Part shown: piece after piece, positions 1,121-49,383 of the stretch
Numbering within the stretch: the first letter of the stretch is position 1
How the letters are laid out: each line of letters starts with the position of its first letter
Assembly (NCBI GenBank): GCA_041178425.1
Contig: JBEGVH010000006.1
Span: forward strand, 1-64,000
Direction: 5' to 3'
From: Pseudomonadota bacterium
GTDB taxonomy: Bacteria; Bdellovibrionota; Bdellovibrionia; Bdellovibrionales; Bdellovibrionaceae
Length of the DNA stretch: 64,000 nucleotides
The notes under the pieces: model-generated
What the model was told of the DNA's origin: nothing
What the model saw: only the letters and a program-made list of their open reading frames with translations
Databases searched by the model: none
Translations under genes and position numbers: made by a program

Positions 1121-1873
1121 CTAGTTCCGTGTTTCGGATGAATGAGCGGATTTATTTTCTGCCTCGGTTGTCTGGTGCAAAAAAGCTTCAATGCTTTCTC
1201 CGGTGATTTTTTCAACTTGTTTGAAATAGTAAATAAGTAAGCCGAGAAGCATAGCCATAGATGGGATGGCAATGCCTAAAAAGCCTCTTTTGTGCATGAG
1301 GGCTATTTGGGCATTGAGTAAGTTGGCTTTTTCCACCTCGGCGATGGAGTCACTGATGGGTGTGAAGGTTTGTTCAGCAATCAAAAAATTAAGAAGCGCC
1401 GAAATGAAAAAACTAAGAGCAAGGATGTGATTGCTCCTTAAGACAAGTTTATGAAACGCTTCAGTTTGATTTGATTCCTTGAGTCGAGACTCGAGCTTAT
1501 CGGTATTAAAAACGTCTGGAGACATAAGCATTTTGCCAAAAAAAGGATTATTTCGAAGCCCCGAAATTAAAACGAAAAGACCGATGAGAAATGGAAAGCT
1601 AGCCTCTTTGAAAGAGAACCATCCTCCACTCAATTGCAGTAGACCAAAGCCACCTGTGATGATCACGTTCACTAAGCCAAGAAGAGAAACAAAATTATGT
1701 TTTTTCGTTTTCCACCATTCGAAAGCGCCATAAAATAGCGGAAATGCGATGGCAATGAGAAGTCTTATTTCGGGAGTGAAAAAAGTGGTGGAGTTGAGGA
1801 TATAAATAGGAATCGCAATGCTAAAGGCGAGGTTGCTGAAAACACTGACTAATGATTTTGTTTCATGGTTCAA
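1121..1873 (-). CDS. Multi-pass membrane protein (VC0807/intracellular septation-like)
   Basis: About 6 hydrophobic helices, WFSFKEA motif, GAGGAG RBS before a TTG start. Confidence 0.6.
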   Translation of the reverse strand: MNHETKSLVSVFSNLAFSIAIPIYILNSTTFFTPEIRLLIAIAFPLFYGAFEWWKTKKHNFVSLLGLVNVIITGGFGLLQLSGGWFSFKEASFPFLIGLFVLISGLRNNPFFGKMLMSPDVFNTDKLESRLKESNQTEAFHKLVLRSNHILALSFFISALLNFLIAEQTFTPISDSIAEVEKANLLNAQIALMHKRGFLGIAIPSMAMLLGLLIYYFKQVEKITGESIEAFLHQTTEAENKSAHSSETRN

Positions 1874-40460: not shown

Positions 40461-42526
40461 AGTCCTCAAAGAAAAAGAGTCTGTTTCGGCTTCACTCGGA
40501 ATTTCAGCCGTCGGGTGATCAGCCTCAAGCGATTCAAAAACTGGTTGAGAATTTTTCCACCGGTGCCAAACATCAAGTGCTCTTGGGAGTCACCGGCAGC
40601 GGTAAAACCTTTACAATGGCGCATGTGATTTCACAGCTTCAGCAGCCGGCTCTCGTCTTAGCTCCAAATAAAACCCTGGCAGCCCAACTCTATAGCGAAT
40701 TTAAAGAACTGTTTCCAGAAAATGCCGTTGAGTATTTCGTGAGCTATTACGATTACTATCAGCCCGAGGCCTATGTGCCGTCGACCGATACATTTATTGA
40801 GAAGGATTCGGCGATTAACGAGCATATCGATCGCATGCGCCACTCGGCTACGCGCTCTCTCTTTGAGCGCAAAGATGTGATTATAGTGGCCAGTGTTTCT
40901 TGTATTTATGGGCTTGGGAGTCCTGAATCCTATCTTGGGATGATGGTTTCTGTGGAGGTGGGGCAGAAGCTCAAACGCGATGCCTTCTTGAAGGAGCTTA
41001 TTCGCATTCAGTATCAGCGCAATAATATCGATTTCCATCGTGGAACCATCAAAGTTCGTGGTGATGTGGTCGATGTGTTCCCGAGTTATGAAGAGACTCG
41101 CGCTTTGCGCTTTGAATTTTTTGGTGATTATATTGATAAGATTTGCTGGTTTGATGTTTTAACAGGTGAAGTGTTTGATGAATTAGAGAAAGCTTCTGTG
41201 TTTCCGGCGAGCCACTACGTGAACGGAGACGACGTTCTTAAAAAAGCGATTGGAACGATTCAAGAAGAGCTTCGTGCACGAATCAAAGATTTCGAAAATC
41301 AGTTAAAGTTCCTCGAAGCCAAGCGAATCGAACAGCGCACCTACTACGACATCGAAATGATGGAGTCGATCGGGTTCTGTCAGGGCATTGAAAACTACTC
41401 GCGGCATATGACAGGCCGTGGCCCTGGTGAAGCACCTCCCACCTTGCTCGAATATTTTCCGGCGGAGTTTTTGACCATTGTGGATGAAAGCCATGTGACT
41501 ATTCCGCAAATCGGGGGAATGTATCGTGGCGATCGGGCGCGCAAGATGACTCTAGTGGAATATGGATTTCGTCTTCCCTCGGCCCTAGATAACCGGCCAT
41601 TGAATTTTCAAGAATACGAAAAACTCATGGACAAGGTCGTCTATGTGTCGGCGACCCCTGGGCCCTACGATATGCAAAAAAGTGAAGGCTTAGTCGTTGA
41701 GCAAATCATTCGTCCGACTGGGCTCTTAGACCCCCTTGTTGAGGTCCGTCCGGTGCGAACGCAGGTGGATGATTTGCTTAAGGAGATTCGCATTCGCATC
41801 AAAGCGAAAGAACGCGTGCTGATTACGACTCTCACGAAAAAAAGTGCTGAAGATCTTACGGAGTACTATGAGTCATTGAATATAAAAGTTAAATATCTCC
41901 ACAGCGATATAGATACTGTGCAGAGAACAGAGATTCTCAGAGATCTTCGTTTGGGTGTTTTTGATGTGTTGGTAGGAATCAACCTTTTACGAGAAGGTCT
42001 CGACTTGCCGGAGGTGAGTTTGGTTGGTATCACCGACGCTGACAAAGAAGGTTTTCTTCGTTCTGAGCGTTCATTGATTCAAACCATAGGGCGGGCAGCG
42101 AGAAATGCCAATGGCCGAGTGATTCTTTATGCGGATAAAGTGACTGACTCGATGTTCAAGGCCATGTCGGAGACGGAACGTCGGCGCCAGCTTCAGCAAG
42201 AATACAATGAAAAGCATGGGATCACCCCTGCCACGGTCAAACGAAAAATAAAAGATGGCCTGGGGGAGATGTTTGATGGATCTTTGTCTAAAACTATTCT
42301 TCGCTCGCAAGCACAAAGTAAAATAGCCGAAACAAAAGCTATTTATGCCCTCAAACCAACAGAATTGCGGGCGAAAATTGATGAACTGCGTGCCAAAATG
42401 AAAGCCTTGGCTCAAAAGTTAGAATTCGAGGAGGCCGCTAAACTTCGAGATGAAGTTCGTCGTCTCGAACTCCTTGAACTCGAAAATCTTGAGGGCGTCA
42501 TTGGGCGCGAGAGTGACAATGAGTAG
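40442..42526 (+). CDS. uvrB: Excinuclease ABC subunit B
   Basis: [18 protein letters not shown] and DESH motifs; C-terminal UVR domain. Start codon uncertain. Confidence 0.97.
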
Positions 42527-44432
42527 GTCTATTGGGCAGTCACTGGTGAACTCAAAAATTGACGATCTCAAGGACCGTGTGAGGGATTTTCCGGATCAGT
42601 CGGGTGTCTATCTCATGAAAAATAGCACCGATAAAATCATCTACGTTGGTAAAGCGAAAAATCTCAAACAGCGGGTGCGAAGTTATTTGGGTGAAAGCAA
42701 AGACCTAACGCCGAAGACTCGACTTCTCGTCGCCAATATTCACGTGATCGATTATATTCTTACGAAAACCGAAGTAGAGGCGTTCCTTCTCGAAGCTTCG
42801 TTGATCAAAAAACACCGTCCAAAATTTAATATCCGTCTCAAAGATGATAAAAACTACCCTTATATTCGCGTTTCGATGAAAGACGAGTACCCACGCCTTT
42901 ATTTGAGCCGCACGGTCAAACCCGATGGGTCTCTGTATTTTGGCCCTTATACGAGGGGCGGTAGTGTTTTTGAGACCATGCGCTTTCTCAATCAATCCTT
43001 TCAATTGCGTGATTGCACCGACCACAATCTTAAAACGAGAGAACGCCCGTGTATTAACTTTCAACTGGCACGCTGTTCGGCCCCTTGTGTGAAATTGGTG
43101 AATACCACAAATTACGGTGAGGATATCGCGAAAGCTCTTCAGTTTTTGCGGGGTCAAAGTCAGGAATTGATCGACGAGCTCAAGCAAAGAATGTTGCATC
43201 TCTCGGATGAAGAAAAATACGAACAGGCCGCTCGCTGGCGCGATACCTTACGTTCATTAACAGCGATTCTTGAAAAACAATCGGTGGTTGATCCCAACGC
43301 AAAAAAAGATGTCGATATCGTTTGTTTTGTGGGAGATCAGCGTGGAACGATGATTCAGTTTTTGCACGTTCGTCAGGGGCGTGTGCTCGGTACTCGCTCG
43401 CAATTTTTATCGGGCCTTGATCCACAAGATCCCAATGAGGATCCGCGCGAGTGGTTTGTGTCGGTGATCAATCAATATTTTTGGGAGAACATTGTGCCTG
43501 AGGAGGTCGTTCTCTCCTTTGATATCGGCGTAGAGATGATGCGCCTCATGCAAAAAGTATTGACGGAACGGCGAGGGAGTGAGGTCTTAATTAAGATCGG
43601 AACCCACGATGAAAAAGAAAAAGAACTCTTAGAATTGACTCTGAACAATGCGCGGGTGGCGCTCGAGAAACAATCAGAAAAAGTGGAATCCAAAAAGAAG
43701 GGTCTCGAAGAGATTAAAGAGAAATTCAACCTTCCACAGATTCCTTTTCGAATTGAGTGCTATGATATTTCCAATTTTCAAGGGCGTGAGATCGTTGCGA
43801 GTCAGGTGGTTTTTGAAAAAGGGATTCCGGCCAAAGATCAGTATCGACTTTATAAGATCAAGTCTCTGAAAGACGCCAACGATTTTGCCTCCATGAAAGA
43901 AGTCCTCAGTCGGCGTTTTAAGCATCAGGAGTGGGAGGATCCTCAATTGGTGGTTGTTGATGGCGGTAAGGGCCAGTTGAATTTCGCTCTACAAGCTCTC
44001 AAAGAAGTGGGTAAGGACCACCTTCCTTTGGTATCACTCGCGAAAGCCAAAACTGAAAGTGATTTTGAAAAAACGGAAGTGCAAGGATCTGAGGAGCGAT
44101 TTTTTCTGCCGGGGCGACAGAATCCTGTGCTCTTTCGTAAAAATAGTGAAGGCTTAAGAATACTCACTCATCTTCGTGATGAGGCCCATCGTTTTGCGAT
44201 CACGTTTCACCGAAAGCTGCGTGATAAAAAGAGTCTGGGATCTATTCTCGATGAGATCGAAGGCGTGGGTGAGAAACGTAAGAAGCTTCTTTTGGAGCGC
44301 TTCAGCGGCCTTGAGGCCATAATGGCCGCCACGGCCGAAGAAATTGCAGCTCTTCCGAGTTTTAATTTAGATTTAGCCGAAGAGATTAAGGCGTTTCTCA
44401 TGAACGAACTGGGTGATGATTCCCAGCCCTAA
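42519..44432 (+). CDS. uvrC: Excinuclease ABC subunit C
   Basis: [17 protein letters not shown] domain; ECYDIS, DGGKGQ and RDEAHRFA motifs; HhH. Confidence 0.96.
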
Positions 44433-44482
44433 AAAATAGAAAAGTCCGCTCAGCTATCTTCCTGATAACAAAAGCGGACTTT
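44430..44482 (-). terminator. Intrinsic terminator of the riboswitch transcript (possibly bidirectional with uvrC)
   Basis: Stem AAAGTCCGCT (44441-50) / AGCGGACTTT (44473-82) with an inner TATC/GATA hairpin; the U-rich tail TCTATTTTTT is on the minus strand. Confidence 0.7.
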
Positions 44483-44504
44483 AAGGGGAATAAAACCGTT
44501 CCAT
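44481..44504 (-). CDS. Micro-ORF MERFYSP* downstream of the riboswitch
   Basis: AAGGAAGGAG SD, 6-nt spacer, then ATG GAA CGG TTT TAT TCC CCT TAA. Confidence 0.4.
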   Translation of the reverse strand: MERFYSP

Positions 44505-44553
44505 GGGGATCTCCTTCCTTCTCTAAATAAACCTACCTTAGGCTTTTTATCGA

Positions 44554-44651
44554 CCTTTGGCACACTGGCTGGCATTTCTCATCCGGAGAATTAGCCCCTT
44601 TAGTTTTGCGTCCCATCGTTTCCAATGGTTTGCCCTGAGACAAAGGAAGGA
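44554..44651 (-). ncRNA. c-di-GMP-I (GEMM) riboswitch aptamer
   Basis: CAGGGCAAACCAUUG-GAAA-CGAUGGGACGCAAAACU...GGCUAA-UUCUC/GAGAA-AUGCCAGCCAGU; P1 CCUUUG/CAAAGG; GNRA loop and tetraloop receptor present. Confidence 0.92.
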
Positions 44652-45104
44652 TATGACATATATTTAATTTTTCTATATCATTCCTAGACTAGAAAAAAAC
44701 CTCGATAGAGCCTCCTTAATTATTTAGTTGAAAAAACGTACCGCAACCAAATTTTAAAAACCTAGTTGGGCTTCGCTACTTTGGTGCACGGGATTCGCAA
44801 GCTCTGTGCTTCCTGGCTTTGCTCATGTCCCACCCTCCTTTTGAGCGTCGTTTGGAACCAACGCGCTAACAAAATCAGGTTACTAAACAATGTTAGTTTT
44901 TACAAATTTTTGAGGGGACTGCGTATCAGGTTGACGACTGTTAAGAATATCAACGGCTTAACCGATGAAAATCGTTTTATTAGGAGACAAATCTCAAAAG
45001 TGTTCAAAATAAAAATCAAAAAAAAGTGGATCGAAAAAACTAGAGAATAACTTTGAGCGCTCTAGAATCCCTCTCTGGAGCGTTTTCTAAGTCGATAGTA
45101 AAAA

Positions 45105-46160
45105 TTATTTGGCGTCGAGGTTTGATTTTATAGAGGCTTTATTGGCGAAAGACGCAACCGCATCAGAGCCATAAAAAAGAAGTTCTAAGTCCTCCCACTC
45201 AACACCAATATAAACCTGTTGCTCTTCAATTAATCGCTTCAGCTCATTCATCTTAATGCTGGCTTCCATCACATAAGGATCGGCATAGGCTGTTGCTTTT
45301 GCGAGGGAGGGAGTAGTGAAGAGGCTTTCTTGCCAATTGGGGCTCGACAGAAAAAAAGTGAGATAGTTTTTGTGAAGGTTGAGTCGTTCATGAGGAGTTT
45401 TGGTGGAAGTGTTTAATTCTATCTTGGAGAGGCTTTGATTCCAATCTTTATACTTCGAATTGGAATTCAATTCGACAGTTAGTTGCGCACGGAGAGAATC
45501 AAATTCTGTTTGTGCAAAATGAGGATCGTTCAACTTTTGGATGAGGAGAAGGAATAGAGCTTGAGCTTTGCCGAGTCCTCGATAAAGGGTGACTTTATCG
45601 TCCTTAGAAAATTGGTTCTTTAAAAACAAGAATAGCTCCCTATGAGCGTTTTTGCGTGAGTAATTGTATGATTGAGTTTCGCTATCAAAAGCGAAATAGG
45701 GTTGTGCAGGTAAAACCGACTGAATCGGATCTAATTCTTTGTGTCCGAATTCAAAAAATCGCTGATTGCGATAGTAGCCCTCTAAAAAAAGGGATCCATT
45801 GATGAGGACCCAACGATTGTCGAAGCGACGGCCGGTTTCGAACGCCGTTACAATCTCCTTGTTAGAACGCTCAAACATTCTTCTGCCCATCGTTGGATGC
45901 GTAGTAATGAAGGGTGTTCGTTTGAGGAAGTTCTCGTCAAACCAATCAAGTTCGCTGTTAATCCATAGGTTCCGCTCTGAAGGGGGTAGGTTAAGAACGA
46001 CGTCGTTGAGATTATTGAGACGAACTTGAAACGCTTTTTGGTTGAGTGTTGTTGCGCATTTGTGGATGCTACCCAATGATTTGGCTGTAGCCGCCGCTAG
46101 TGAAGGGCCCATGTTTCCAACTAAAAAAGAAAAAGCCAAAAAAAGTTTTAGAATTGTCAC
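45105..46160 (-). CDS. Secreted hypothetical protein with ADP-ribosyltransferase-like motifs
   Basis: Signal peptide; VTLYRGL, SLFTTPSLAKATAYA and EWEDLELLF motifs. Confidence 0.55.
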   Translation of the reverse strand: MTILKLFLAFSFLVGNMGPSLAAATAKSLGSIHKCATTLNQKAFQVRLNNLNDVVLNLPPSERNLWINSELDWFDENFLKRTPFITTHPTMGRRMFERSNKEIVTAFETGRRFDNRWVLINGSLFLEGYYRNQRFFEFGHKELDPIQSVLPAQPYFAFDSETQSYNYSRKNAHRELFLFLKNQFSKDDKVTLYRGLGKAQALFLLLIQKLNDPHFAQTEFDSLRAQLTVELNSNSKYKDWNQSLSKIELNTSTKTPHERLNLHKNYLTFFLSSPNWQESLFTTPSLAKATAYADPYVMEASIKMNELKRLIEEQQVYIGVEWEDLELLFYGSDAVASFANKASIKSNLDAK

Positions 46161-47778: not shown

Positions 47779-49383
47779 TTAAAGTGCTCCGCCACCGGGG
47801 GGTCGAGGAGTTGTTGTCTCCTCAGGGGTTGTGGTTTCACCGCCTGGACCCGTGGGTCCAGTAGGACCAGTTGGTCCGGTTGGGCCTGTCGGACCGGTGG
47901 GTCCAGTAGGACCCGTAGGACCAGTAGTGCCAGGGGTTCCGCCTGGACCTGTTGGGCCCGTTGGGCCAGCAGGACCTGTGGCTCCTGTGTCACCTTTCGC
48001 GCCCTTGGCACCTGTTTTTCCTTGTTTTCCACTGTTGAGGAGTGCTGCGATCGCTAAACCAAGAGCGGCAAGAACGCCACCGCAAACGAGCCCTTCGGTG
48101 ATCCCTTTGGTACAAAACCAGCCACTTTCTTCTTTTTTCTCTGTGGCAGCCGCGGCTGCCACAGGAGCTATTTTATCGCTAGACTTTGTCGCTGCGGCGG
48201 GTGCCTTTGCGGCTTCAGTTAAGTTGCCCATAGGTTTCAACACTTCCACGCACGCGGAAATGTTGTGGTGGTTATCCTCAGAAGCCGTAAATCCAGTGAT
48301 GTCTTTCGCGGAAATTCCTTTGAGTTTAGTGCGATCGTCTTTATATTGTTTGCGATCTTTATCAGCCATACAAGTGTCGATGAGCCAATCCATCTTTCCG
48401 ATGAGGTGATCGCGCACTGATTTATTGATTGTCACTTTGTCTTTGTAGCGTGGATCACTTTCTAGTTTTTTAATATGCTCATTCATTTTCTCTGGGCTAT
48501 TGATAGAGCTGTAGCCAGAGGCGTCGGCACACTGCTTTGAAACGTCTTCCTTTGGATTTTTTGTTACGCAGTATTCCTTTGAACCGTTGTAGCCAAATAA
48601 AAGGGGATTACAAACAAGCTTGCTTCCGCCACAACTATAAATGGCTGTGGGTTGTGTGCAGCCTCTCTCGTAGCCGCAACAGCCTGTTTCTTCATCGTAC
48701 ATTGCAGTCACCCAGCCTGCGATGACGCAGCTTCGGTCTTTCTCGCCAGCGGTTGCACTGGGAAGGAGAAGGTCGAAGAGGCTCGATGTTTTTCGAGCCT
48801 TAGGGAGAAAGTTAGACTGGTTTTTTTCAACCGCCATAATGAATTCGCGGAGGGCCTTAAAGTAAGCCATACCCCACTTCGGATCGGCTTTAGAATAGGC
48901 CTTGATTTGCTCCCATGTTGGCAGGGGATTAGTATCGAGTTCTGATTCGATCACGCCATTTTCGAGAGCTTTTTTGAGTGGAAGATTTGTTTTATTAACA
49001 ACTAAAGTTTCACCGTCAGCTGTTTGTTTTAATAGCCACTCCTGCTTTCCGGCGTCTTTCGTTTGAAATCGAAGTTTCAAAAAAGCACCATCAGCCTTGT
49101 TTTTTTGAACCGTGGCTGAAATAGCAGGAAACATTTCGTTTTTGTGCTGAGCCACCCATGGAGCAAAGCGAGCTGCTGTGTCTGCATCCATTTGGCCTTT
49201 TGCTTTTTCAAACCAGGCTCCGACCGTTTGGGCTTTGCCCATGCCGGCTGCATTCAATCTTTCTTTTGAGTGTTTGATAAAATTCTGGTTATTGGGAGCT
49301 GCCCAAACAGCCGCTTCAACAAACAGACTCGAACTGAGAAAGAGGCAGAGGCCTCGGTGAATGACCTGCATTCTTTTCTTCAT
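47779..49383 (-). CDS. Exported Cys-rich protein with late TM helix and collagen-like C-terminal tail
   Basis: Signal peptide; CVIAGW / CNPLLFG Cys-rich domain; hydrophobic [18 protein letters not shown]; 22 Gly-X-Y triplets. Confidence 0.8.
47833..48030 (-). repeat. Collagen-like (Gly-X-Y)22 coding repeat, mostly GPT
   Basis: 198 bp with 9-bp periodicity and synonymous variation between units. Confidence 0.9.

Follow-up and report, generated by a model that had tools for sequence, protein, structure and literature searches.

A free-standing c-di-GMP riboswitch RNA of the merRNA family in a genus other than Bdellovibrio, with two micro-ORFs and a predicted anti-P1 strand

The locus described here lies on the minus strand of a 64,000-nucleotide (nt) stretch of DNA, the window, from contig JBEGVH010000006.1 of a member of the Bdellovibrionaceae, and comprises a class I cyclic di-GMP (c-di-GMP-I) riboswitch followed by a very short open reading frame (micro-ORF) and an intrinsic terminator. 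An earlier note on this DNA, made from the letters alone, had proposed a complete GEMM aptamer on this strand, with a GAAA-looped P2, a P3 receptor and the P1 helix CCUUUG/CAAAGG, and our searches recovered the aptamer with each of these parts. The Rfam scan (cmscan) matched 44556-44644 to RF01051 with 67.2 bits against a gathering threshold of 35 (E 5.5e-11), and the alignment ran over the full model (positions 1-87 of 87). This is the sole Rfam match within the window, a scan in E-value mode returned the same result, and the source assembly (3.06 Mb, 43 contigs) contains no further c-di-GMP-I match. In the cmscan alignment the GAAA loop of P2 and the CUAA...AUG elements of P3 align to the consensus. 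P1, formed by CCUUUG (44646-44641) and CAAAGG (44559-44554), was likewise predicted by RNAalifold from 75 related sequences (columns 224-229 with 84-89), and the same alignment yielded P2 with many compensatory changes among relatives (12, 36, 20, 43 and 12 double changes per pair). The equivalent of residue G20 of the Vc2 riboswitch we take to be one of the three Gs before CAAAC in AGGGCAAAC; all three candidate positions hold a G, so that the earlier note's reading of a preference for c-di-GMP over cyclic GMP-AMP would stand whichever of them it is. An A at this position is associated with specificity for cyclic GMP-AMP or with dual specificity (PMC6140456). A laxer scan of 44380-44960 added an RF01098 match at 44831-44912 (22.3 bits against a gathering threshold of 70, E 0.14), which we ascribe to chance.

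Downstream of the aptamer the strong Shine-Dalgarno (SD) sequence AAGGAAGGAG (44520-44511) precedes an ATG at 44504 and a frame that closes with a TAA ending at 44481, giving MERFYSP-stop (micro-ORF2), just as the earlier note had read it. The terminator placed behind this frame was confirmed by folding: the hairpin at 44482-44441, followed by UCUAUUUUUU, has a free energy of -22.9 kcal/mol and a z-score of -5.06, with 0 of 200 shuffles as good. It was also correct that no normal gene follows, uvrC (recognised by its Pfam UvrC domains) being convergent. Where a cis-acting riboswitch would have a same-strand gene downstream, there is only the seven-codon frame, the terminator and uvrC, and of 18 loci compared, 14 have a convergent first large ORF downstream, one has a co-directional one, and three are unclear. 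A mechanically called ORF of 41 amino acids (44575..44450), which starts inside the aptamer in another frame, was set aside.

A free-standing RNA with such an aptamer has been described as merRNA in Bdellovibrio bacteriovorus HD100, where it is 445 nt long (1,073,741-1,074,185, reverse strand), contains a c-di-GMP riboswitch and reaches massive expression levels during attack phase (PMC3627812). Its read count in attack-phase Bdellovibrio is reported to have matched that of all mRNAs together, and Karunker et al. (2013) proposed that it is a c-di-GMP sponge; they report no conserved ORF behind the riboswitch and no conservation outside Bdellovibrio (PMC3627812). An mBio paper terms merRNA a predicted riboswitch, a preprint employs its promoter, and the literature searched contained nothing joining merRNA or Bdellovibrio with small ORFs.

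The earlier note had offered a stand-alone RNA like merRNA as one option, and the present comparison carries this beyond analogy to a shared architecture. In one of the sampled genomes of the phylum (G176) the sole c-di-GMP-I match, at 1,073,868-1,073,951 (minus strand), falls inside the published merRNA interval, provided that, as we infer, the two coordinate systems are the same. The interval in G176 holds the same boxes, the same two micro-ORFs (an upstream micro-ORF1 and micro-ORF2) and the same terminator as the window; it encloses MRTHEHHDDELK-stop and MEGTNTYKDWFHSP-stop, and the published 3′ end lies 5 nt past the terminator U-run. Exactly one c-di-GMP-I match, at a merRNA-type locus, was found in each of five named Bdellovibrio genomes, and of 151 sampled genomes of the phylum 35 contained a match, exactly one in each case (35/35). 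A pattern of the architecture, combining three blocks that are conserved between the window and its relatives, found 94 matching stretches in a species-representative genome collection. Among the 80 pattern matches listed, which include five B. bacteriovorus strains, nearly all are titled Bdellovibrio, Pseudobdellovibrio(naceae), Bdellovibrionales or Bdellovibrionota; where a record with the window-type MERF[YN]SP frame is named, its title reads Pseudobdellovibrionaceae or Bdellovibrionota. Across Bdellovibrio-like bacteria the shared parts occur once per genome and in one order: SD and micro-ORF1, box B, Y1 with the P1 5′ strand, aptamer, linker hairpin, S, micro-ORF2, Y2 and terminator (Table 1). 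We are highly confident of this architecture and of the identity of the locus as the organism's single-copy member of the merRNA family, in a genus other than Bdellovibrio. The exact merRNA-type pattern was also seen in a few metagenome-assembled genome records labelled Bacillota, Proteobacteria, Agriterribacter, Verrucomicrobiota or Prolixibacteraceae (L072, L027, L034, L067, L076 and L080); at least the L072 contig looks mis-binned, since it carries typical Bdellovibrio micro-ORF1 and micro-ORF2 peptides, and L034, L067, L076 and L080 were left out of the parsing.

The size of about 220 nt that the earlier note gave to the unit did not hold. By our prediction the flagged stretch is the 3′ half only of a free-standing RNA of ~430 nt, running from ~44860 to ~44431, which begins ~215 nt upstream of the aptamer and holds a second micro-ORF. 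The ends, and with them the inferred length, were set by homology to the published merRNA interval; the strand follows from the aptamer and the terminator, not from RNA-library contigs. The predicted 5′ end (~44860) falls ~17 nt after the TAACCT of TAACCTGATTTTGTT, and in G176 (locus L122) 17 nt separate the published merRNA 5′ end from the corresponding TATCCT upstream of it, in the TATCCTGATTTTGTT block. DNA similarity among same-genus loci extends from 44826-44961 down to 44431-44433 and stops there in four of four genomes. Four RNA-library contigs (394, 341, 335 and 200 nt, from metatranscriptome-labelled runs of four studies) lie wholly inside 44462-44849. Three of the four have one end at 44839-44849 and three have the other at 44496-44503, one reaching 44462, which is a weak hint of RNA ends; in one short RNA-library contig the fragment ends near 44858 and adapter-like letters follow. 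In the four RNA-library runs no contig fell on uvrC or on the 351-amino-acid gene upstream, an absence that we do not use as evidence.

Table 1. Features of the merRNA-type locus and its surroundings, in window coordinates
Feature	Position	Strand	Basis and remarks
Promoter-proximal block TAACCTGATTTTGTT	44868..44882	-	conserved; kept in same-genus loci
Free-standing merRNA-type transcript, ~430 nt (predicted)	44431..44860	-	RNA-library contigs, same-genus similarity, homology to merRNA interval
SD (AAGGAGG) of micro-ORF1	44834..44840	-	sequence; strong SD before micro-ORF1 in relatives too
Micro-ORF1, MSKARKHRACESRAPK-stop	44776..44826	-	translation; conserved gene of 12-17 codons, ending ..[P/L]K-stop; purifying selection
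Box B, AAGGAGG, no start codon behind	44711..44717	-	predicted closing helix with CCUU of Y2
Local hairpin 5′ of P1 (AGGAAUGAUAUA / UAUGUCAUAUCCU)	44648..44685	-	minimum free energy folds; holds 5′ part of pyrimidine box
Y1, UCCUUCCUUUGUCU, containing P1 5′ strand (44646-44641)	44638..44651	-	partner-switching strand; RNAduplex
c-di-GMP-I aptamer	44556..44644	-	RF01051, 67.2 bits, full model; compensatory changes in P2
P1 3′ strand, CAAAGG	44554..44559	-	RNAalifold
Linker hairpin, AAGCCU-AAGGU-AGGUUU	44529..44545	-	minimum free energy fold; variable-sequence hairpin at same place in relatives
S box, AGAGAAGGAAGGAG	44511..44524	-	SD of micro-ORF2 and anti-P1 strand
Micro-ORF2, MERFYSP-stop	44481..44504	-	translation; frame kept, peptide body not
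Y2, UUUUAUUCCCCUU, 3′ pyrimidine motif	44483..44495	-	nucleotide-invariant; predicted to pair with S (GGAA) and with box B (AAGG)
Intrinsic terminator: hairpin (44482-44441) plus U-run ending at 44431	44431..44482	-	folding; stem starts inside micro-ORF2 stop codon
uvrC, convergent (context)	42450..44432	+	Pfam UvrC domains; stop codon overlaps last U-run bases

Conservation of micro-ORF2 was assessed in two sets of loci. In the set collected by aptamer similarity (the window plus 19 loci), TTCCCCT occurs in 17 out of 19 loci that could be evaluated. In 14 of these 17 an in-frame ATG is found and a stop comes right after CCT; L021 is without a start, and in L016 and L013 the ATG is present and the frame reads on through the terminator. 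TTCCCCT is absent from L010, which has another micro-ORF ending at the terminator, and from L011, in which none was seen; L014 is cut by a contig end. The larger, selection-biased set obtained with the architecture pattern gave 65 distinct micro-ORF2 regions with frames of 7-19 codons, and the stop directly follows CCT in 55 of them (TAG 33, TAA 19, TGA 3). In 47 loci of the ATGGAAGG type, where S overlaps the start codon, spacers of 22, 25, 28, 31, 34 and 37 nt occur and 41 loci are in frame; in the remaining 18 loci an ATG lies 4-11 nt downstream of GGAAGG in 17 cases, S acting there as the SD in the manner of the window, and 14 loci keep the frame. One relative (L005) carries a 3-nt in-frame insertion, giving MERFFYSP-stop, and in another (L116) micro-ORF2 spans the 5′ arm of the terminator. 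Some loci were left out of these sets: 13 of 108 pattern-bearing loci were dropped as their aptamer landmark was not located by the script, L118, L120 and L121 were left out for want of a landmark match, L014 and L018 are cut by contig ends, and the S box of L009, which had been mislocated, was ignored in the duplex comparison. L010 is from another family, and its riboswitch (1503-1586, minus strand) scores as c-di-GMP-I-GGC (RF03167, 61.4 bits against 59), not as RF01051; it is followed by an SD, the eight-codon ORF MKNSNLSS-stop and a terminator.

The encoded peptides, of 7-19 residues, have only their end in common, [WRKS]-F-[HYN]-S-P. Among single-base codon differences in the variable body of micro-ORF2 the synonymous fraction is 0.13 in frame and 0.24 and 0.18 in the shifted frames, which argues that there is no selection on its amino acids, and in the unbiased set the last 14 bases are invariant even at synonymous sites. 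In our reading the frame and end point of micro-ORF2 are maintained and the peptide is not. The suggestion of a ligand-gated micropeptide gene is thus borne out in part: relatives keep the frame, and its SD coincides with the anti-P1 strand described below, but the peptide body evolves like non-coding sequence. The same division applies to conservation in relatives, where frame and terminator are kept and the peptide is not. The suggestion that the unit is the remnant of a deletion, a classical riboswitch that lost its gene and kept the first codons, does not survive the comparison and is scarcely credible. Convergent uvrC and a mere seven codons after the SD would fit it, but no relative compared has a long coding sequence at this ATG, the layout of a 7-19-codon frame ending at the terminator recurs in 55 of 65 distinct loci in different genomic neighbourhoods, and the insertion in L005 is in frame.

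All of the 80 distinct loci that were folded have the terminator, and in 78 of them its stem begins 0-4 nt past the CCT codon. Termination of translation after proline is slow, and the arrangement recalls a leader-peptide attenuator, in which ligand would gate micro-ORF2 and a ribosome lingering at the Pro-stop on the terminator stem would allow read-through antisense to uvrC. The stop codon in or adjoining the stem in 78 of 80 loci, the widespread C-terminal F-[HYN]-S-P-stop and the frame covering the terminator 5′ arm in L116 are all in keeping with this, but the C-terminus is conserved at the nucleotide level, the stop after Pro is missing in one lineage, sequence similarity does not extend past the terminator, and neither an antiterminator pairing in the folds nor a co-directional gene was found. 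Folds and RNAalifold revealed no pairing that competes with the terminator stem. With a convergent gene downstream in 14 of 18 loci, control of a neighbour by read-through is unlikely, and we regard such an attenuator as highly improbable. The terminator apex (44456-44466, minus strand, AUCAGGAAGAU) is conserved in sequence across related loci as AUCA-nn-GA-n-GAU and the stem below it covaries freely, which is unusual for a plain terminator. GGA sites of the CsrA type in the apex were considered and dropped, GGA occurring in only 41 of 80 loci.

The upstream micro-ORF1 behaves differently from micro-ORF2. In 55 of 69 distinct upstream regions we found an SD, an ATG or GTG and a frame of 10-17 codons ending in [P/L/F]K-stop, located 136-184 nt upstream of Y1; MKNRIHDHHDE[AP]PK-stop is an example from Bdellovibrio, and in G176 micro-ORF1 lies inside the published merRNA interval. 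Among single-base codon differences the synonymous fraction is 0.63 in frame compared with 0.14 and 0.15 in the shifted frames, the signature expected of a translated, selected peptide. Since micro-ORF1 thus appears to be under purifying selection, the RNA would additionally be a tiny mRNA, encoding a selected peptide of 16 residues in the window. The Bdellovibrio frames often end in ..EPPK-stop, and those of the family often in Pro-Pro-Lys or Pro-Pro-Pro-Lys before the stop. Proline runs are known sites of ribosome stalling, so the product of micro-ORF1 might regulate as a nascent peptide instead of acting as a free one. In three loci of family f6 (L128, L125 and L132), micro-ORF1-like frames ending in ..LDPPPK-stop were noticed ~100-130 nt upstream of the aptamer (MHLTPRDWCLDPPPK-stop in L128; the other two were read by eye).

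The selection on micro-ORF1 also raises the reverse view, that the transcript is primarily a small mRNA for this peptide whose stability is set by the riboswitch at its 3′ end, the compact ligand-bound fold blocking 3′-to-5′ decay. Small RNAs that end in the Vc2 aptamer in Vibrio cholerae offer a precedent (bioRxiv 10.1101/617340), and three of the four RNA-library contigs end at 44496-44503, 8-15 nt past the S box, which is a weak hint in the same direction. On the other side stand the strong terminator 60 nt further on, conserved in all 80 folded loci, and the contig that continues to 44462, the ends of assembled contigs being poor evidence in any case; moreover, micro-ORF1 was not seen in the second sequence type described below. 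We hold this view to be possible, though not likely.

The boxes that flank the aptamer suggest how the RNA may fold in two ways. In RNAduplex, Y1 (44651-44638) pairs with 44524-44512 of the S box in a duplex of 13 bp with one bulge (-15.9 kcal/mol). Since this anti-P1 duplex consumes the six P1 bases in full, as well as the three aptamer bases that follow, it and P1 are mutually exclusive. In the minimum free energy (MFE) folds of 79 distinct loci GGAAGG is fully paired with CCUUCC in 36 and P1 is formed in 12. Variants on both sides are compensatory (ACUUCC/GGAAGU in L017 and CUUUCUUCC/GGAAAGAAAG in L117), the cognate pair being the most stable in a cross table. RNAalifold further predicted closing helices that join box B (columns 5-8) to the CCUU of Y2 (columns 366-369) and the GGAA of S (303-306) to the UUCC of Y2 (columns 362-365), and the GGAGG of box B is invariant in 75 of 75 aligned sequences. 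An equivalent of the local hairpin, AGGAU/AUCCU, is visible in relatives. Other roles for these boxes were examined and set aside: no start codon follows box B that would make it the SD of a third ORF, a TAG lying within 5 nt in Bdellovibrio, and pairing of Y2 with CUAAAGGGG of the aptamer, or a pseudoknot of Y2 with the terminator loop, appeared inconsistent by eye in L016, L017, L021 and L020.

The nucleotide invariance of Y1 and Y2 is also what would be expected of the seeds of a trans-acting small RNA, in which pyrimidine motifs (CCUUCC and UUCCCCUU), exposed or hidden by c-di-GMP, would pair with the SD regions of target mRNAs; the two predicted folds do differ in whether Y2 is free. However, the partners inside the RNA explain the conservation of both motifs, Y2 lies within a frame-conserved ORF, and no target was found, none having been sought. 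We consider this mode of action improbable.

Beyond the Bdellovibrio family, 18 loci from eleven other families of the phylum were compared, and eleven of these (L123, L124, L126, L127, L129, L130, L133, L134, L138, L139 and L140) use what we call a second dialect, with other letters in the same places: UGAAGAGG, CCCCCUUUGAAAA running into the aptamer, UUUCAAAGGGGGG, CCUCUUCA and then the terminator. In 12 of the 18 loci no more than 3 of 200 shuffles outdid the complement to the P1 5′ region. The predicted box B closing helix of the Bdellovibrio family has its counterpart in the box pair UGAAGAGG/CCUCUUCA, and this cross-family comparison is the only covariation-like support for the closing helices, as the columns are invariant within the Bdellovibrio family. 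By the criteria stated above for micro-ORF1, and for a micro-ORF that is preceded by an SD and ends at the terminator, neither frame is found in the second dialect. Hence the core function of the family at large cannot lie in the ORFs, and its core would instead be an RNA-only, two-state device. In seven loci of other families (L123, L139, L129, L130, L138, L133 and L131) we noted a short inverted repeat of the AACGC-N3-GCGTT type ~100-130 nt upstream of the aptamer, perhaps the binding site of a regulator or part of a promoter.

Taken together, these comparisons make it probable, in our judgement, that the locus encodes a free-standing, terminator-bounded RNA of the merRNA family that regulates no gene in cis and acts as a bistable, tunable c-di-GMP buffer. 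With c-di-GMP bound, P1 would be closed, the 5′ part of Y1 would be held in the local hairpin, and S and box B would pair with the two halves of Y2. Without ligand, Y1 and the P1 5′ strand would pair with S, and the anti-P1 helix (13 bp in the window) would undo the aptamer, thereby tuning how the ligand is captured and released. Within the Bdellovibrio family S would double as the ribosome-binding site or start codon of micro-ORF2. With S as the ribosome-binding site, the last codons of micro-ORF2 inside the closing helices and its stop inside the terminator stem, the occupancy of the aptamer by ligand, the loading of ribosomes on micro-ORF2 and the integrity of the 3′ hairpin would be physically coupled. 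The most likely output would be the state of the RNA itself, that is, the c-di-GMP it holds and its lifetime, rather than a switch for a downstream gene.

The micro-ORFs also bear on the simpler proposal of a purely non-coding c-di-GMP sponge, in which they and the SD-like boxes would be structural by-products without any role for the ribosome. This proposal accords with the massive attack-phase expression and the original suggestion of Karunker et al. (PMC3627812), with the loci of other families, which keep aptamer, anti-P1 and terminator and in which, by the above criteria, the ORFs are not found, and with the conservation of Y2 as nucleotides while the micro-ORF2 peptide body drifts; the anti-P1 helix alone would suffice to tune affinity and release. 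It does not account for the coding signature of micro-ORF1 (0.63 against 0.14-0.15, with a strong SD), for length changes in threes in micro-ORF2 (six length classes, 41 of 47 loci in frame) or for the occurrence of all three stop codons at the same place, and we consider it unlikely in this strict form.

Besides the second dialect, in whose 11 loci neither ORF is found by our criteria, several observations weigh against a bistable, ribosome-coupled buffer. The MFE folds of 31 of the 79 loci show neither P1 nor anti-P1, and the closing helices S:Y2 and B:Y2 show no covariation in the f1 alignment, where their columns are invariant. Equilibrium folding gave no clear switch at the start of micro-ORF2: the unpaired probability of S is 0.20 unconstrained and 0.25 with P1 forced, its partner being Y1 in the former case and Y2 in the latter, and the cost of opening the start has a median of 9.75 versus 9.35 kcal/mol (8.5 versus 8.4 in the window). 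A model in which ligand turns translation on, examined by comparing the P1-forced with the free ensemble, was rejected in the absence of a meaningful change in S accessibility or opening energy, and for this reason we claim no direction of coupling. Ten of 65 distinct loci lack an in-frame start or a stop after Pro, one cultured lineage continues micro-ORF2 for 10 codons into the terminator, and the invariance of Y2 at synonymous sites together with the W/R/K/S variation just before it fits a constraint on RNA better than one on peptide. Because GGAAGG and TTTNATTCCCCT served to select the pattern-derived set (L022 onward), neither motif can be counted as conserved within it. The RNA-library contigs show neither strand nor true ends, their depths do not rank expression, and RNA libraries can contain DNA, so we take them only as a sign that a short molecule matching this stretch occurs in such libraries. 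Finally, simple scans of 44380-45120 detected neither a sigma-70 promoter on the minus strand nor the terminator, whose hairpin was missed because its stem has an internal loop. Our confidence in the direction and role of translation is low.

A bolder version, to which we assign little probability, is that merRNA-family RNAs are not passive sponges but ribosome-coupled, bistable c-di-GMP buffers that also encode the selected micro-ORF1 peptide. If this were true, a ribosome on micro-ORF2 would unzip the RNA, free the bound c-di-GMP and expose the 3′ end to decay, and translation could trigger a burst of c-di-GMP at the predator's switch from attack to growth. 

What the present comparison adds is the conservation of the micro-ORF2 frame, an SD or start codon that is at the same time the anti-P1 strand and has compensatory changes, and an upstream micro-ORF1 under purifying selection. 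The locus and its relatives show that merRNA is not peculiar to Bdellovibrio but is a single-copy feature across many families of the phylum, with a conserved, predicted two-state design of P1 versus anti-P1 whose switch strand, in the Bdellovibrio family, is a ribosome-binding site flanked by one micro-ORF conserved in frame only and one with a coding signature. In the literature searched the function of merRNA is still only guessed at; the question now reduces to a short list of mutants and assays in genetically tractable strains, and its answer would supply a further example of a riboswitch with its own RNA, and not a neighbouring gene, as output.

Some further features of the region may be recorded. 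Directly after micro-ORF1 a long hairpin followed by UUUUUU (44731-44772, minus strand) resembles an internal terminator; three RNA-library contigs cross it, and the U-run is absent in same-genus relatives. The 351-amino-acid ORF directly upstream of the RNA (45105-46160, minus strand) has no Pfam match, and an ORF of 534 amino acids further upstream (47779-49383, minus strand) matches the collagen triple-helix repeat (PF01391, E 1.3e-6).

Several known systems resemble parts of this RNA. Classical c-di-GMP-I (GEMM-I) riboswitches in 5′ untranslated regions share with it a full-member score and a competition between P1 and anti-P1 that involves an SD, the usual translational logic; here, by contrast, a seven-codon frame ends in the terminator, the transcript is separate and there is one copy per genome. 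The leader of the tna operon encodes an arrest peptide that ends at a stop after proline. Leaders of this type likewise have a very short ORF with a conserved C-terminus and a Pro-stop directly before a termination signal, but in our case no downstream gene is regulated, conservation is at the nucleotide level and the residue before Phe is W, R, K or S. Dual-function RNAs are small RNAs that also encode a small protein, and the RNA described here is similar in being short and structured, with a small ORF (micro-ORF1) that has a coding signature and is under purifying selection. It differs in that the regulatory part is a ligand-binding aptamer, not a base-pairing seed, and translation of micro-ORF1 is predicted.

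The closest relative is merRNA of HD100 itself. Both are free-standing RNAs of ~430-445 nt with the sole c-di-GMP-I aptamer of their genome, a terminator of their own and no co-directional gene, and both have the same box order and both micro-ORFs, which in G176 lie inside the published interval. The window organism, known only from metagenomes, belongs to another genus; its micro-ORF2 is of the short SD type with seven codons, whereas the merRNA type has a 14-codon MEG..DWFHSP frame, and its micro-ORF1, of 16 residues, differs in sequence from that of merRNA. The merRNA paper reports neither a conserved ORF nor conservation outside Bdellovibrio (PMC3627812), and the present comparisons find both. 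The Vc2-ended small RNAs upstream of tfoY in V. cholerae likewise have the aptamer in their 3′ part, and there the ligand is proposed to act on the stability of its own RNA (bioRxiv 10.1101/617340). Vc2 also regulates tfoY in cis (bioRxiv 10.1101/617340), and no gene follows in the window, which unlike the Vc2 RNAs has a conserved terminator, an anti-P1 helix and micro-ORFs, its ligand-dependent stability being a prediction. In mechanism, these Vc2-ended small RNAs are the closest precedent for a riboswitch acting on the transcript that contains it.

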